Source: Candidatus Woesearchaeota archaeon (lineage in GTDB: Archaea; Nanobdellota; Nanobdellia; SCGC-AAA011-G17; CAYFGV01). Taken from it: a stretch of DNA of 64,000 nt. The notes beneath the pieces were generated by a model. That model was not told the origin of the DNA. It was given only the letters and a program-made list of their open reading frames with translations, and did not search any database. Every line of letters begins with the position of its first letter. The first letter of the stretch is position 1. Shown here one piece after another: positions 36,310 through 41,654 of this stretch. Both the position numbers and the translations under genes were made by a program. The stretch covers positions 32,543 through 96,542 of the forward strand of contig CAYVLZ010000004.1 in the NCBI GenBank assembly GCA_964452525.1, written 5' to 3'.

Positions 36310-37110
36310 TTATTTTCTTTTAGCTAAGAAAAGATTTAGAAATAAAAGGAATACTGCCAATGCTACTAAGGCTATAGTTGCATGTAATTGGTAAAGTAAA
36401 ACTTTGTATTCTGAATAAGAGCCTTTTACATGGAAACTTTCCCAGGGGTCTAAGCCGTAGGCTGTTTCTGTGTATTCTCCTCTGTTTCCTATGTATACGG
36501 AATGTTCTGCTATATCTTCTGAAGCTGCACTCATGGCCTTACCAAGTGCCGCAAAGTTCTCTCTGTAATCAATATCTGTTTTTCCTTCTTTTAGATGTAA
36601 ACCGCTGTTAACATTTATTGCTACTCTGACTTCATTAACATCGTATTCAGTCATGATAGTTTTGAAGTCAAATTTGTAAAGACCTAGAGATTCGTCTACA
36701 TAGCCGTTTGCTTTATAATAAAGTATTAATGTAGTTTGTTCAAGTGGCTCGAGTTTTTGGCTTAAAGTAAATGTGTAAAGTGTAGAGTCTGCTAATTGTT
36801 GAGCTGTGTAATCTGGTTTTTTGTATTCTAATCTTGGGTAGTAGTATTCTACACAGAAATGTTCACACTCTTGAAAGTATTCTTCTACAGCATAAATCAT
36901 TCTAACAGATTCTCCTGGAATTTGCAAGAGTATTTTGTCTATAGCATTGTCTTCTAGATTTTGAATAGTTATTTTAGCAACTACTGTAGCTTCCCCTTCA
37001 CCGTCAAACATTACTGAGTAAGATTGTTCTTGACCCATTATTATTTCTGGACTAGCGTTTACTGGTAAAACTAACAAAATAAAACTTAAAGCGAGTATTA
37101 ATTTTTTCAT
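36310..37110 (-). CDS. Secreted, membrane-anchored hypothetical protein
   Basis: Signal peptide and C-terminal TM with basic tail. Confidence 0.75.
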   Translation of the reverse strand: MKKLILALSFILLVLPVNASPEIIMGQEQSYSVMFDGEGEATVVAKITIQNLEDNAIDKILLQIPGESVRMIYAVEEYFQECEHFCVEYYYPRLEYKKPDYTAQQLADSTLYTFTLSQKLEPLEQTTLILYYKANGYVDESLGLYKFDFKTIMTEYDVNEVRVAINVNSGLHLKEGKTDIDYRENFAALGKAMSAASEDIAEHSVYIGNRGEYTETAYGLDPWESFHVKGSYSEYKVLLYQLHATIALVALAVFLLFLNLFLAKRK

Positions 37111-37174
37111 TTTTTATTCCTCCTTAAGGTGATGTAGTAATTAGGATTAGAATCTATATAAACATTTTTTAGGT

Positions 37175-37190
37175 TTCAAGTTAATTTGGA
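37175..37190. promoter_or_regulatory. Putative operator TTCAAGTTAATTTGGA
   Basis: Imperfect palindrome 12 bp upstream of a minus-strand TATA box; twin site at 37808. Confidence 0.6.
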
Positions 37191-37217
37191 CTTATAGATA
37201 GGTTTTTAAAAGAAATT

Positions 37218-37766
37218 TTATTTTTTGACTATTCTCCAGATGAAAAGGAGTAGTGAAGCGAATAGAGCTCCTATTAAAAACCATAGAGCGTAGTTAGGAA
37301 TTGTTGTTATTATTTCTGGTGCTTCTTGAGTATCTGCAACTTTTTCCACTAAACCAGTTGCAAAAGCATTGGATCTTGTGTAGAAGAAATGCCCTATGCC
37401 TACAAAGGCTGCACTTATTAAAGCTACAGGTAAGATGTTTTTTAATTCTTTTTTAATATTAGTTTTTGACGGAGAGATTACGATTAGTTTTTTTGCTATT
37501 TTGTAAAGGTACATTTCTCTGCCTTTTGGACTCCACATAAATTCTTTAGCTTCTATCAATCCGCTTTTTATTAATTGTTTAATGTTATAATCTACTGTTG
37601 AAATAGGAACTTTTAGAGCTTTAGATAATTGAGATGCGGAAGCTTCTTGGTTCTTTCCAAGATAGTCTAAAATTTTTCTTGAAGTTTCATTAGAAATGGC
37701 ATGAGCTAGTTGTTTAGATTTTTCTTCTTCTAGTGAAACCATCAAGTAAGTTTCTTCTTTTGCCAT
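37218..37766 (-). CDS. Membrane-tethered ArsR-like wHTH regulator
   Basis: ISNETSRKILDYL..ISTVDYNIKQL plus two C-terminal TM helices. Confidence 0.85.
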   Translation of the reverse strand: MAKEETYLMVSLEEEKSKQLAHAISNETSRKILDYLGKNQEASASQLSKALKVPISTVDYNIKQLIKSGLIEAKEFMWSPKGREMYLYKIAKKLIVISPSKTNIKKELKNILPVALISAAFVGIGHFFYTRSNAFATGLVEKVADTQEAPEIITTIPNYALWFLIGALFASLLLFIWRIVKK

Positions 37767-37807
37767 GTATTAGTTGTAGAATTAGTGTTTATAAAGGTTT
37801 TTTAAGG

Positions 37808-37823
37808 TTCAAATTAGTTTGAA
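37808..37823. promoter_or_regulatory. Putative operator TTCAAATTAGTTTGAA
   Basis: 6-4-6 palindrome 12 bp upstream of TTTATAAA. Confidence 0.6.
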
Positions 37824-37824
37824 G

Positions 37825-37890
37825 TTATCCAAGGTAGATAGCTGGTTTTCCTGGTTTGGCTTTTTTAGTTTTATCTTGTAAATCTGGGTT
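37825..37890 (-). pseudogene. Displaced remnant of the leuS 3' end
   Basis: Translates NPDLQDKTKKAKPGKPAIYLG*, versus the current LeuRS end YDPSNKAKKARKNKPALYLE*. Confidence 0.8.
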
Positions 37891-37951
37891 TTAGTGTTTC
37901 GTGTTTCAAACGCCCGCGTAAGATATATAAATGATGTTTCCTTTATAATGA

Positions 37952-39253
37952 ATGATACATTTTTGGGACTTACCAAATAAAAATTGGGTGATTCTAGATG
38001 AAGATTTTAAAAAGAATTTAATGCTTAAATTTCTTAATAAATCTAAGAACGTAGATAAATCCTTGGGGATATTGGAAGTTTCTAAAAGTACATTTCTTAG
38101 GATGATTGGTGTAAATAATTACAAGATTAGAACCGATGTTTTAACTAAAGTAGTTAAATATCTGAACTGTAGAGAGTTTAGTTTGGAAAAAATAGAGGAA
38201 AATATAATCTGGATAGGTCATAAAAACAGCCAAGGAATTCTGAATCCCAAACTGCCTTTTAATTTTAATACTAAGCCTGCAATCAGAGTTCTGGCGGCTA
38301 TCTTTAATGAAGGTTGGGTAAGTAAAGGTATGTATTATTCTAATAGTGACGACTCTCTAAGAAATTCTGTTAAATTAGATGCTTTGGAAGCCTTCGGTGG
38401 AAACCAGGATTCTATTAAAGAATATCTTAAAAAGAATGATAAAGTTCTGGCTTTTCCTTCTATTATGAGGGACTTGATTTTAGCTTATGTGGATCTCGGT
38501 GGTTTTAAAGTAGATAATGATCCTATGCTTCCTAAAGATATTTTGTTTAACAGTGATTTAATGTGTGCTTGGATAGAACAAACTATAGCAGATGAAGGAG
38601 ATGTTAAATTTACACCACATATGCCAAAATCAGAGAAGTATAGGAAATCTATAAATTGGAAAAGATCAGTCGATTTGTCAAAAGATGAATTTATCAAAAA
38701 TAAAGTTAAAAAGAAAACTTCTTTTAGAAAATTGTCTAAAGATATCCAATTATATTTAATAAAGAAAACAAATAATGTTGTAGACATGGAATTTAGGATA
38801 TTGAATAAGCTCAGAATTGCCTTCTCTTCTTATTGTTCGGGGATATATTTCACGGATAGAGGGAAGATTAGAACAAGAAAAATATTCAACATAACTAGAA
38901 GAGACAATTTACTTAGATTAAGAAAACTGATTAAAATCCCTCATGTTGGAAAGGAGTCAAGATTTAGAGAGATGTTTAAAGATTACAAGAGGTATAAGGA
39001 ATCATCGATTGTGAAGGATTCTGTGATAAGGATATGTAAGAGAAAAGGTAAGATTACTTCTAGAGATTTAAAATATGATAGGGGTTATAAGAACGTTTCC
39101 TGTGCTATACGGTGGCTGAGAAGATTTGAAAGAGAAGGTTTGGTTAAATGTATAAAAAACCATAGTTACGGAGACTCTTTAGGAAGAAAACCTGGAGAAT
39201 TTATTCTAAATAAAGGGCTGGCTTATTCTTACGGGCCTTCTTCGCCTTGTTAG
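37952..39253 (+). CDS. Free-standing LAGLIDADG-like endonuclease with HTH domains
   Basis: VLAAIFNEG and WIEQTIADEG motifs; very basic; overlaps the leuS 3' end antisense. Confidence 0.75.
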   Translation: MIHFWDLPNKNWVILDEDFKKNLMLKFLNKSKNVDKSLGILEVSKSTFLRMIGVNNYKIRTDVLTKVVKYLNCREFSLEKIEENIIWIGHKNSQGILNPKLPFNFNTKPAIRVLAAIFNEGWVSKGMYYSNSDDSLRNSVKLDALEAFGGNQDSIKEYLKKNDKVLAFPSIMRDLILAYVDLGGFKVDNDPMLPKDILFNSDLMCAWIEQTIADEGDVKFTPHMPKSEKYRKSINWKRSVDLSKDEFIKNKVKKKTSFRKLSKDIQLYLIKKTNNVVDMEFRILNKLRIAFSSYCSGIYFTDRGKIRTRKIFNITRRDNLLRLRKLIKIPHVGKESRFREMFKDYKRYKESSIVKDSVIRICKRKGKITSRDLKYDRGYKNVSCAIRWLRRFEREGLVKCIKNHSYGDSLGRKPGEFILNKGLAYSYGPSSPC

Positions 39254-41654
39254 AAGGATCATAAATTTCTTTTTGATTAGTTGGTATGATTACTACCTTA
39301 TCAGAACCTGTAGAAGTTTTTATATGATCCTGGTTTTCTTTGAATAAATTTACTTCATTAGGAATAGTATAAATATATGTTTTTGGATTATTTATTTTCA
39401 ATATTTTTTTAATGCTTATTATATCGTCTGAAGTCTTTTTAATTATTCTTTCTTCTTCTTCTAACTTTTTATCTATCTTAGTTTTATCAGCTTCTGGCCA
39501 TTTTTGTAAACTTATAAAAGATTTGTTGCGTAATTTCTTCCATAATTCTTCTGCTATATGCGGACAGAAAGGGGATAGAAGTTTTATAAATGATTCCAGG
39601 TCTTTTTTTCTTATCTCCTTTTCTAAAGACTCAAATAAAGATCTTATTTTTATTACAGCAAGATTGTATTTAAATTGTTCAATGTCTTCTGTAACCTCTT
39701 TTATTGTTTTATGCAACTTGCTTTCAAATTTTTTGCTTGATTTTCCTAGTTTAACTTTGTTGATGTAATTAAATAGCTTATTGATAAATTTAAAACTTCC
39801 TTGTACTCCTTTGTCACTCCACTCTATATCTTTATCGGGGCTTGCGATTGATACTAGGAATAATCTAGCTGTATCAATACCATATTTTTTGGAAACTTCC
39901 TCTGGTAGAACTACATTTCCACGGGATTTAGACATTACAAATCCATCTTTGTGTAACATCCCTTGATTAAATAACCTAATAAATGGCTCACTAATCTTCA
40001 CAAATCCGAGATCTCTTAGTGATTTAGTAAAAAATCTTGCATAAATTAAATGCATGCAAGCATGTTCTGCTCCTCCGATGTACTGATCAACAGGCATCCA
40101 ATAATTAACTTTCTTTTTATCAAAAGGTTTTTTATTATTTTTATTATCACAATATCTTAAAAAATACCAAGAGCTATCAAAGAAGGTGTCCATAGTGTCT
40201 GTTTCTCTTTTTGCTTTATTTTTGCATTTGGGGCATTTTACATTAACAAAGGTATTACTGGTTGTTAATGGATTTCCTTTCCCGAATTTTACTTTTTCAG
40301 GTAGTTTAACTGGCAGGTCTTTTTCTGGAACAGGAACAATACCACAACTTTCACAGTGAATCATTGGTATCGGAGTCCCCCAGTATCTTTGTCTTGAAAT
40401 AAGCCAGTCTCTTAGTTTAAATTGGGTATCTGGGTGACCGAAATTTTTCTTTTTTAGATATTCTGTTATCTCATACGTAGCTTTTTTACTATTTAATCCT
40501 GAGAACTTATCTGAATTAACTAGAATTCCTTCTCCAGTATAAGCTTCCTTTAACTTTTCTTCATTTAGGCTTTTATCTTTGTTCTGGATAACTACCCTTA
40601 TAGGAATCTTATACTTCTTAGCAAAATCAAAATCTCTCTGATCGTGTGCTGGGACTGCCATCACGACCCCGCTAGCATAATCTGCAACAACAAAATTAGA
40701 AGCATAAATAGGAATTTCTTCTTTCGTTAAGGGGTGAATAGCGTATCTTCCAGTGAATATGCCTTGTTTCTCTTTTTGTTCTTTAGTTTGTTTTGGTAAA
40801 TTTTTAAAGAATTTTTCAACATCTTTTTCTTTTTTTGTTCCTTTTGCTAATTCTCTAACCTCAGGGTGTTGGATTGAATATACTAAGAATGTAACCCCGT
40901 ATAAGGTATCGGGTCTTGTCGTAAAAACTTCTATTGTTTTTTTTGAATCTTTAATTTTGAATTTAACTTTTGTTCCTTTACTTTTTCCTATCCAGTTTTC
41001 TTGCATTATCTTAATTCTTTCTGGCCATTTAAGTTTAGGAATTTCTTTTAATAATTCATCAGCGTATTTAGTTATTTTGATAAACCACTGTTCTAGATTC
41101 TTTTCAATAACCTCTGTATCTTCGTGTCTCCAGCATTTCCCATTATGTACCTGTTCGTTAGCCAGTACGGTATTACATTTTTGACACCAATTAACTAAAG
41201 CTTTTTTTCTGTACACCAAATTTTTTTCAAAGAATTTTAAAAAGAAATACTGATTCCATTTATAGTATTGTGGATCTGATGTATGAAGTATTCTGGACCA
41301 GTCATAACTTAAACCTAGAGACTTTTGTTGTTTTATGAATTTTTTAATGGCTTTTTCTGTGTATTTTTTTGGATGTGTTTTTGCTTTGATAGCTGCGTTT
41401 TCTGCCGGCAAACCAAAGCTGTCATAACCCATAGGGTAAAGAACATTAAAACCTTGCATTCTTTTGAATCTTGTGTATATGTCACCTATTATGTAATTTA
41501 GAGCGTGGCCCATATGAAGGCCTTCTCCTGAGCTATATGGAAACATTTCTACAATTGATTGTTTTTCCTTTTTAGGATTCTCTTTGACTTGGAATATTTT
41601 TGATTTTTCCCATTTAGACTGCCATTTCTTTTCAATTTTATTAAAATCAACCAT
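39201..41654 (-). CDS. leuS: Leucyl-tRNA synthetase, bacterial-type core
   Basis: MFPYSSGEGLHMGH, TVLANEQV, DWLISRQRYWGTPIP, MHLIYARF, VMSKS. Confidence 0.97.
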   Translation of the reverse strand: MVDFNKIEKKWQSKWEKSKIFQVKENPKKEKQSIVEMFPYSSGEGLHMGHALNYIIGDIYTRFKRMQGFNVLYPMGYDSFGLPAENAAIKAKTHPKKYTEKAIKKFIKQQKSLGLSYDWSRILHTSDPQYYKWNQYFFLKFFEKNLVYRKKALVNWCQKCNTVLANEQVHNGKCWRHEDTEVIEKNLEQWFIKITKYADELLKEIPKLKWPERIKIMQENWIGKSKGTKVKFKIKDSKKTIEVFTTRPDTLYGVTFLVYSIQHPEVRELAKGTKKEKDVEKFFKNLPKQTKEQKEKQGIFTGRYAIHPLTKEEIPIYASNFVVADYASGVVMAVPAHDQRDFDFAKKYKIPIRVVIQNKDKSLNEEKLKEAYTGEGILVNSDKFSGLNSKKATYEITEYLKKKNFGHPDTQFKLRDWLISRQRYWGTPIPMIHCESCGIVPVPEKDLPVKLPEKVKFGKGNPLTTSNTFVNVKCPKCKNKAKRETDTMDTFFDSSWYFLRYCDNKNNKKPFDKKKVNYWMPVDQYIGGAEHACMHLIYARFFTKSLRDLGFVKISEPFIRLFNQGMLHKDGFVMSKSRGNVVLPEEVSKKYGIDTARLFLVSIASPDKDIEWSDKGVQGSFKFINKLFNYINKVKLGKSSKKFESKLHKTIKEVTEDIEQFKYNLAVIKIRSLFESLEKEIRKKDLESFIKLLSPFCPHIAEELWKKLRNKSFISLQKWPEADKTKIDKKLEEEERIIKKTSDDIISIKKILKINNPKTYIYTIPNEVNLFKENQDHIKTSTGSDKVVIIPTNQKEIYDPSNKAKKARKNKPALYLE

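Follow-up and report, generated by a model that had tools for sequence, protein, structure and literature searches.

In a 64,000-nucleotide stretch from Candidatus Woesearchaeota archaeon (contig CAYVLZ010000004.1, positions 32,543 to 96,542 of the forward strand; "the window" below), leuS, the gene for leucine–tRNA ligase (LeuRS), ends in a foreign terminus, and its resident terminus persists as a relic on the far side of a convergent open reading frame (ORF). The stretch that separates the leuS body from the relic is a cassette that was inserted at this place. Relatives show the structure of the empty site, the gene is present in some and absent from others, and both acidic residues of its two LAGLIDADG motifs are retained. 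We consider it likely that the 433-amino-acid ORF is a free-standing homing endonuclease gene of the LAGLIDADG_3 type with added helix-turn-helix (HTH) and winged helix-turn-helix (wHTH) domains, that it was inserted as a cassette together with the tail of a donor leuS, and that it spreads by intronless homing through a putative cleavage of leuS. The insertion with replacement of the tail is well supported in its own right. We refer to the ORF as the endonuclease gene after its predicted identity, and to genomes and loci by G and L numbers where they have to be told apart.

Two leuS termini flank the endonuclease gene

Along the window, the leuS core (41654–39261) is followed by the foreign C-terminus (39260–39201), the endonuclease ORF (37952–39253) and the relic (37890–37825). 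The features of the locus are as follows.

39201..41654, minus strand: leuS, a bacterial-type leucine–tRNA ligase of 817 amino acids (ORF; TIGR00396 leuS_bact, E 7.7e-282; Pfam tRNA-synt_1_2 and Anticodon_1)
39201..39260, minus strand: working (incoming) leuS terminus DPSNKAKKARKNKPALYLE and stop, the duplicated part in use, antisense to the final 53 nt of the endonuclease ORF and with atypical codons
37952..39253, plus strand: endonuclease ORF, 433 amino acids, convergent with leuS
37923..37932, plus strand: likely TATA box ATATATAAAT of the endonuclease gene, ~25 nt ahead of its ATG and within the insert, as judged from the sequence
37825..37890, minus strand: relic of the resident leuS terminus, NPDLQDKTKKAKPGKPAIYLG and stop, with no start codon and with stops closing the frame upstream
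37767..37824, minus strand: original leuS 3' flank, the palindrome TTCAAACTAATTTGAA and then the B recognition element (BRE)/TATA box CCTTTATAAA of the wHTH gene, alignable to the DNA behind leuS in L043, L051, L063 and L065
37218..37766, minus strand: gene for a membrane-anchored wHTH protein (ArsR/MarR-like), conserved as the next gene downstream of leuS (Pfam HTH_20, E 1e-10)

This leuS is the only one in its genome (1 match in a leuS search of the genome). It ends in IYDPSNKAKKARKNKPALYLE*, and its 19-codon tail meets the endonuclease ORF tail to tail with an overlap of 53 nt (39201–39253). In the working tail all five lysines are encoded by AAG, and GCG, GCC and CGT are also used; the leuS body has 103 AAA and 22 AAG among its 125 lysine codons, no GCG, and a single GCC and CGT each. 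The relic tail uses AAA for 5/5 lysines, and the two tails are identical at 31/66 nt. The relic contains KAKPGKPAIYL, a string found in leuS of relatives without the endonuclease gene.

The initial annotation had described a leuS end in AAG/GCG/CGT codons with an antisense overlap of 53 nt and, beyond the ORF, a second leuS terminus in AAA codons that abuts the operator of the next gene. All of this is present in the sequence, the "operator" being the palindrome TTCAA-N6-TTGAA, which is probably the operator of the wHTH gene. The palindrome stands behind the relic stop and ~12 nt ahead of the TATA box of that gene, and at least three families of the order share it.

Only these two termini were found when the last 26 amino acids of LeuRS from a relative without the ORF were compared with the whole genome (755 kb) in six frames by tblastn. 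The working end scored 38.5 bits (E 2e-7) and the relic 30.8 bits (E 1e-4), and the next-best match fell to 18.5 bits (E 3). Contigs of a further sample, X2, from the same study span both junctions of the insert (37796–38560 and 39066–39404) with zero differences. This indicates that the arrangement is not an assembly artefact.

Relatives without the gene show the uninterrupted leuS 3' flank

In relatives without the endonuclease gene (L043, L051, L063, L065), the leuS stop codon is followed at once by CTTCAA-N6-TTGAAC, ~12 nt, the TATA box CCTTTATAAA and the wHTH gene. Counting these four, 8 relatives that lack the endonuclease gene have a wHTH homologue downstream of leuS. In the window, the same palindrome-promoter string stands behind the relic stop and not behind the working stop. 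This indicates that the resident leuS once ran directly into the palindrome and the wHTH gene, from which the leuS body is now separated by ~1.37 kb comprising the new tail, the endonuclease gene and its promoter.

Among 25 complete leuS ends of relatives, none carries the window's ARKNKPALYLE/RKNKPALYLE end, so the prediction that relatives without the gene should not already carry RKNKPALYLE agreed with what we found. The complete ends nearest to the window's working tail were KSKPGRPAIFVE and KAKLGKPAIYLE, and KAKPGKPAIY[LI]E occurs in many of the 25. The initial annotation had further predicted an empty allele in which KPGKPAIYLE stands next to the wHTH gene. The gene order was found in the 8 relatives, but their leuS ends are long-type tails (e.g. 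AMPSKPSIKIE) rather than KPGKPAIYLE. A metagenome scan with the wHTH protein for an empty allele in the exact context of the window returned 6 loci at 38–45% identity; the DNA fetched for these contained neither leuS nor the endonuclease gene.

Two features of LeuRS in the order emerged from the same comparisons. Across the leuS 3' ends of L016–L067, short and long bacterial-type and archaeal-type LeuRS share a terminal peptide, ...KAK(xx)PGKPAI[YLI][LVI]E*, and the short bacterial-type and the archaeal-type enzymes have a homologous C-terminal domain in common. The shared end suggests a chimeric origin or a strong common constraint, e.g. tRNA-Leu recognition. Some bacterial-type leuS genes also contain in-frame inserted domains, of ~150 amino acids near residue 366 in G007 (L080, C1:427700-431000) and of ~180 amino acids near residue 240 in G006 (L081, C4:28600-31900), the latter with an HSLGG motif like that of an alpha/beta hydrolase. 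Similar split leuS matches were seen in G002, G034, G059, G015, G012, G018 and G021. Inteins were considered for G007 and G006 and rejected, the inserts being ordinary domains as judged by eye, with no family search.

The inserted gene belongs to a family with LAGLIDADG motifs

A family search of a clustered database with the 433-residue protein returned 71 proteins at E ≤0.01, of which the full-length ones, from Nanoarchaeota/Woesearchaeota, have ~400 amino acids and are 36–55% identical. An exhaustive search gave 166 cluster representatives at E ≤1e-3. A family profile built from 77 members, when compared with the Protein Data Bank (PDB), matched the V-ATPase intein best (7qsu, E 3.7e-7; 7qss, E 5.2e-7), with both LAGLIDADG motifs aligned, followed by PI-PfuI (1dq3, E 7e-6) and PI-PkoII (2cw7, E 2e-3). 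The domains placed on the window protein are:

38039..38191, plus strand: N-terminal Xre/HipB-like HTH, limits approximate (weak profile matches to HipB and Xre chains, E 0.002–0.03; HTH_3 in 10/77 and HTH_26 in 7/77 members)
38285..38320, plus strand: LAGLIDADG motif 1, RVLAAIFNEGWV, whose acidic residue is E120 (pairs in the profile alignment with motif 1 of the V-ATPase intein endonuclease)
38564..38605, plus strand: LAGLIDADG motif 2, CAWIEQTIADEGDV, whose acidic residue is E215 (pairs in the profile alignment with motif 2 of the V-ATPase intein endonuclease)
39014..39196, plus strand: C-terminal wHTH, limits approximate (profile match to 6o5c, the wHTH of a metal-dependent regulator, E 3e-4, and to other wHTH chains; HTH_24, Fe_dep_repress and others in a few members each)

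The residues expected to matter for catalysis are strongly conserved. At position 120, 66 of the 77 members have D and 11 have E, with G121 in 77/77; at position 215, 67 have E and 10 have D, next to D214 in 76/77 and G216 in 73/77. When members were scanned singly, 20/77 matched PF14528 (LAGLIDADG_3) at E ≤0.01, the best at 2.9e-9. The Atlas model of a homologue, P0007 (~43% identical to the ORF; predicted local distance difference test score 0.82), superimposed on the intein region of V-ATPase subunit A with a template modelling (TM) score of 0.64 over 294 residues, and it also aligned with the intein regions of several other proteins (TM by query, 0.50–0.64). Membership of the window protein in the LAGLIDADG fold, as predicted from the profile, the Pfam matches of the members and the model of the homologue, therefore holds at the family level, and at that level the identity proposed in the initial annotation was borne out; the window protein itself has no Pfam match.

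The 36 close members are all intact ORFs with a mean column identity of 51%. In its own genome the window's endonuclease gene is single-copy. The last ~11 residues of the ORF (LAYSYGPSSPC) are unconserved and read through into leuS.

Duplicated tails recur at leuS 3' ends

Including the window, the endonuclease gene was found at the leuS 3' end in six loci, and in 6/6 the gene ends overlap, by 17–53 nt. The final leuS codons are therefore part of the end of the endonuclease gene, and the two must move together. A relic leuS tail lies beyond the endonuclease gene in 4/6 of these loci: the window, L025, L026 and L027. The three further relics read:

L025 (= G041): TLSDRSKEQKAKQALPGKPAILVE*
L026: VNDKEKCDPTNKSKNAKPGKPAIYLE*
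L027: VSDKKKHDPENKAGRAKPGKPAIYLEQ*

G050 has a possible relic that is badly eroded, and G001 has no relic tail beyond the endonuclease gene. A search of 52 sources in six frames with a loose tail pattern found a second leuS tail in the same four loci only. None was found in 16 other endonuclease-bearing loci or in 29 leuS loci fetched irrespective of the gene, where extra pattern matches lacked the context of a tail. The initial annotation had expected duplicated host termini at other free-standing loci as well. This was found for 4/6 of the 3'-end loci, with one possible case (G050) and one locus without (G001), but not for the 14/22 loci with the gene on the 5' side of leuS.

The 5' boundaries of the four relics lie ~20–35 codons ahead of the stop, and their clustering there suggests a zone of breakage or insertion within the leuS tail. 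At the place that matches the window's likely TATA box, L025, L026, L027 and L015 encode (Y)KC(F/I)(C/Y)CV on the opposite strand, giving TTTATA on the strand of the endonuclease gene.

The family is sporadic and tied to leuS

Across 61 genomes of the order, leuS was found in 60, and strong matches to the endonuclease in 5 (G000, which is the window's own genome, G001, G041, G050 and G057). Four further genomes have distant paralogues, which brings the count to 9/61. A scan of public loci, with one genome per species and a narrower family alignment, yielded 22 loci, in 21 of which leuS is the immediate neighbour; the remaining one stops at a contig edge. Three arrangements occur: the endonuclease gene upstream of leuS on the same strand (14 loci, gaps of 8–74 nt), convergent at the leuS 3' end (5 loci and the window) and divergent at the leuS 5' end (2 loci). 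The neighbouring leuS is bacterial-type in some loci and archaeal-type in others. The endonuclease family is thus sporadic in DPANN archaea and confined to the neighbourhood of leuS.

A quick maximum-likelihood tree placed the leuS-linked proteins in one clade (support of 99 in the Shimodaira–Hasegawa-like approximate likelihood ratio test, SH-aLRT), apart from paralogues encoded upstream of a PHP-like gene. The window protein pairs with that of G001 (support 100), and the four other 3'-end loci form a separate clade with one divergent locus (support 100).

The distant paralogues in L006, L007 and L009 (G047, G044 and G013) lie directly upstream of, and overlap, a gene that starts like a PHP-domain protein (DLHIH...). 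The one in L007 matches LAGLIDADG_3 at 35.9 bits (cut-off 22.5) and also HTH_3. No duplication of the host gene was found at these three loci, and the subfamily seems to be dedicated to a different host gene. In G050, a separate free-standing LAGLIDADG_3 gene of 267 amino acids (L015 838–1638, minus strand; E 5e-7) stands ~1.1 kb upstream of the same leuS as the family member. The records of contigs L018, L020, L030 and L034–L036, which carry a DPANN-type locus, bear the title "uncultured Methanosarcinales archaeon", probably a wrong label that arose in automated binning.

Congeners differ in the gene and in the type of leuS

Three pairings of congeners show presence and absence of the gene at one locus, and in two of the three the occupied partner has an archaeal-type leuS as against a bacterial-type leuS in the other. 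In the first, the gene occupies the 5' side of leuS in G057, with a small divergent gene as its other neighbour, and the congener G015 is empty at this place; the flanking genes are the same and the LeuRS proteins are 70–78% identical. In the second, G041 has an archaeal-type leuS with the endonuclease gene and a relic, whereas its congeners G016 and G058 have a bacterial-type leuS behind the same 4–5 upstream genes. These upstream genes are 53–87% identical and the leuS products 27–30%. The G041 relic matches the leuS 3' end of G016 at 54/66 nt (82%; manual count on the alignment). As the relic corresponds to the congener's bacterial-type end, a bacterial-type leuS was resident first in G041 and was replaced in place. 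In the third, G050 (archaeal-type leuS and endonuclease gene) and G031 (bacterial-type) share the next gene at 58% identity, and in G031 the leuS stop overlaps the start of that gene.

Identities of the endonuclease and of LeuRS do not run in parallel. The window and G001 are 56% identical in the endonuclease and 35% in LeuRS, and G050 is 61–63% identical to L026/L027 in the endonuclease with 42–45% in LeuRS. G041, L026 and L027 are concordant among themselves (endonuclease 57–65%, LeuRS 60–71%). Taken together, these values indicate that the element sometimes travels with its leuS and sometimes moves onto another leuS.

Proposed course of insertion and its alternatives

In the reading that we favour, the cassette would comprise the endonuclease gene, a promoter that serves it, and the end of a donor leuS, whose final codons lie on the other strand and overlap the endonuclease gene at its 3' end. 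It would have been copied into the resident bacterial-type leuS ~20 codons ahead of the stop. As a result, leuS would have come to end in the donor tail, and the resident tail with its stop, and behind it the palindrome and the wHTH gene, would have been displaced by 1.37 kb, with the old tail left to decay. For the spread of the cassette, we suppose that the endonuclease makes a double-strand break near the 3' end of leuS alleles that lack it, and that repair of the break on an occupied allele would copy the cassette, which amounts to intronless homing. The incoming tail, or the disrupted junction, may protect the occupied allele. Co-conversion could replace from ~20 codons, as in the window, to the whole leuS, as in G041 and G050; since flanking donor DNA is co-converted, the same process may exchange anything between the tail and the whole gene. 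Co-conversion of donor sequence is borne out by the foreign tail with a native relic in 4/6 of the 3'-end loci, by the match of the G041 relic to its congener's gene and by the discordant identities of endonuclease and leuS.

Insertion of a free-standing gene with replacement of the leuS 3' end, the central claim of the initial annotation, is supported by the relic, the empty sites and the congener pairs. Its description of the new end as a recoded copy needs qualification. The codons of the window tail are unusual indeed, but no general rule follows from them, as the lysine bias is the opposite in L026 and L027, where the relic is AAG-rich and the working tail AAA-rich. Because of this reversal, we read the codons of the window tail as a sign of foreign origin, not of designed immunity.

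That recoding is not general is one of several observations that weigh against the homing reading in the form given above. The PGKPAI codons are kept in 4/4 relics. If PGKPAI were the target, the relics would still be cuttable in their own genomes, so the site must lie elsewhere (e.g. at the 5' junction of the relic) or the relics must be protected otherwise. PGKPAI is also altered in 6/11 short-type leuS ends that have no endonuclease gene at the 3' end, and we gave up the loss of PGKPAI as a mark of occupied alleles, weakened as it is by this like variation. In 14/22 loci the endonuclease gene lies upstream of leuS without convincing duplication. Searches upstream of these 14 loci for a relic or duplicate of the leuS 5' end produced none that was convincing; two marginal scores, slightly higher than in 30 shuffles (L017, 37 vs 36; L036, 47 vs 39), were rejected because of stops or K-rich runs. 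Contigs over 37000–40200 from three runs of one study showed no joint of an empty allele. Taken alone, the window protein gave no usable match in Pfam, NCBIfam or PHROGs, with no LAGLIDADG at E ≤1 in Pfam, and databases label family members "helix-turn-helix transcriptional regulator" or "hypothetical"; the regulator label, together with the intact and conserved copies, also fits a function for the host. The extent of the donor DNA is a further point. In a sliding comparison, the nearest neighbour of the window LeuRS switched toward the C-terminus, over the last 70–90 residues, for which a G001-like archaeal-type donor was considered. For residues 746–817 the best match was G001 with 69.7 bits vs 63.9 for the next, and the closest relative, L023, is cut at residue 744. 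Given this thin margin, donor sequence beyond the last 20 codons of leuS is weakly indicated.

The alternative that best survives these points keeps an active, mobile endonuclease and places its target elsewhere in or beside leuS, so that the new tail would be co-converted donor DNA that happens to overlap the 3' end of the gene and would be no immunity device. The intact PGKPAI codons of the four relics, the tail polymorphism in 6/11 ends without the 3' gene and the lysine bias that reverses between loci all speak for it, as does the presence of the family at the leuS 5' side (14 loci) or in divergent orientation (2 loci); with gene ends that overlap in 6/6 of the 3'-end loci, the tail would travel with the gene regardless. 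The clustering of the relic boundaries ~20–35 codons from the stop in four loci points instead to a break or insertion zone in the tail, and no other shared candidate site was identified. On balance we think a target elsewhere rather unlikely, though it deserves to be taken seriously.

A second alternative is a domesticated, WhiA-like DNA-binding protein derived from a LAGLIDADG enzyme, which would serve leuS and hitch-hike with it in ordinary horizontal transfer, leaving the relics as scars of exchange. Two extra HTH-type domains, the strict linkage to leuS (21/22) in what is often an apparent operon (8–74 nt upstream), the intact and conserved state of every copy and the annotation as a transcriptional regulator in the sources would suit such a protein. 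A regulator of this kind is hard to square with the retention of both acidic residues at the catalytic positions in 77/77 members and with the occupancy of 5/61 genomes against 60/61 for leuS. It also leaves aside that G015 does without the gene that G057 has, at 70–78% LeuRS identity, and that the gene tree is discordant with the identity of the partner leuS. We regard domestication as quite improbable. Finally, the AT-rich genome (GC 0.32), the lysine-rich tail and the short match (18 aligned residues) might suggest a chance similarity or an assembly chimera, but we give this practically no weight in view of the genome-wide E of 1e-4 with the next match at E 3, the common strand, the relic's own stop with the conserved leuS 3' flank and neighbour behind it, the like arrangement in three other genomes and the recovery of both junctions in second-sample contigs.

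Beyond homing itself, we tentatively entertain a broader reading in which the family acts in cellular chromosomes as a natural cut-and-rescue drive against an essential gene. It would cleave the resident leuS, which would be repaired with a variable length of donor leuS, and would thereby cause xenologous displacement of LeuRS in DPANN archaea. Under this reading, which we hold to be possible and no better than that, archaeal-type would have replaced bacterial-type leuS in G041 and G050, and the genome of the window would have received a chimeric tail.

Significance

To our knowledge, homing endonucleases enter essential genes only under the cover of an intron or intein or, as in fungal mitochondria, by carrying a spare end for the gene. 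The locus described here extends this use of a spare end to the chromosome of a cellular archaeon and to the gene for an aminoacyl-tRNA synthetase, and the family involved keeps to a single host gene in many DPANN lineages. Aminoacyl-tRNA synthetase genes have long been noted for promiscuous horizontal replacement. Two of the congener comparisons tie the element to in-place swaps between bacterial- and archaeal-type leuS, which makes the question of why synthetase genes swap so often between distant lineages directly testable. If the cut-and-rescue reading is true, the replacement of synthetase genes would gain a concrete mechanism in a linked homing endonuclease. The part that deserves follow-up is this wider pattern of a leuS-dedicated family, relics and in-place switches of leuS type. 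The proteins would add to the known LAGLIDADG enzymes a set with long sites and accessory HTH and wHTH domains, for which candidate natural targets are easily guessed and tested. For annotation, such genes now pass as "HTH transcriptional regulator" or "hypothetical". The literature searched, with supplements and most subscription papers outside its scope, held no description of this family, of free-standing LAGLIDADG genes in DPANN archaea or of endonuclease-linked replacement of a synthetase.

Comparison with known systems

By profile and by the predicted fold of the homologue, the closest proteins are intein endonucleases (7qsu/7qss, 1dq3, 2cw7), and both groups are double-motif single-chain proteins with conserved acidic residues. 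Unlike these, the protein described here is not embedded in a host protein and has a gene to itself, complete with start, stop and promoter; it carries HTH and wHTH domains and has no splicing blocks that could be seen by eye.

WhiA is a domesticated bacterial regulator with a LAGLIDADG domain and a C-terminal HTH, universal and vertically inherited, in which the catalytic acidic residues have been lost. The family shares with it a LAGLIDADG core followed by a C-terminal HTH, and PF14527 was found in two Atlas clusters, at 12%. It differs from WhiA in keeping the acidic residues in 77/77 members, in its sporadic occurrence (9/61, distant paralogues included) and in the scars of insertion.

Synthetic cleave-and-rescue and home-and-rescue drives direct a nuclease against an essential gene and supply a linked, differently coded rescue copy. 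The logic of the putative drive is alike; here it would be natural, prokaryotic and protein-guided, with leuS as the putative target.

Intronless homing is known from phages, among whose free-standing endonucleases is SegF. As far as the accessible parts of the published accounts go, the systems of T-even phages and cyanophages (SegB, MobE, F-CphI) resemble the present one in having a free-standing gene beside a conserved gene, with neither intron nor intein, in the co-conversion of flanking markers and in a patchy distribution among relatives. The phage enzymes are of GIY-YIG, HNH or EndoVII-like type and act between co-infecting phage genomes, whereas the protein here is of LAGLIDADG_3 type and belongs to a cellular genome. 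In contrast to the phage cases, the insertion described here both duplicates and replaces a coding end.

The initial annotation named phage free-standing endonucleases as the known case of this logic, but the mobile-ORF (mORF) hybrid genes of fungal mitochondria, as portrayed in the accessible text of their description (PMC3630166), are closer and the nearest that we found described. Such hybrids are known for atp6 of Allomyces macrogynus and for atp6, atp9, cox2 and nad3 of Glomus sp. (PMC3630166). They consist of a gene core, an inserted C-terminus, an endonuclease ORF and the native C-terminus, and the native copy matches close relatives whereas the inserted one does not (PMC3630166). Insofar as that account covers these features, the two systems have in common an endonuclease ORF (LAGLIDADG or GIY-YIG in the mitochondria) within the 3' part of a host gene, a foreign in-frame C-terminus that finishes the gene, a native C-terminus kept downstream as a duplicate that, unlike the inserted one, is similar to that of close relatives, and a replaced stretch of variable length. 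In the mitochondrial hybrids, the insert and the mORF are transcribed with the host gene, in phase in atp6 and nad3 (PMC3630166), a feature that the window lacks: here the ORF converges on leuS from the opposite strand, is preceded by a TATA-like box of its own and overlaps the new tail. Within the limits of the same text, the archaeal system stands apart in its cellular chromosome and aminoacyl-tRNA synthetase host gene, in the extra HTH and wHTH domains, in a family that also occurs at the 5' side of its host gene without duplication, and in its tie to the displacement of whole leuS genes between the bacterial and the archaeal type.

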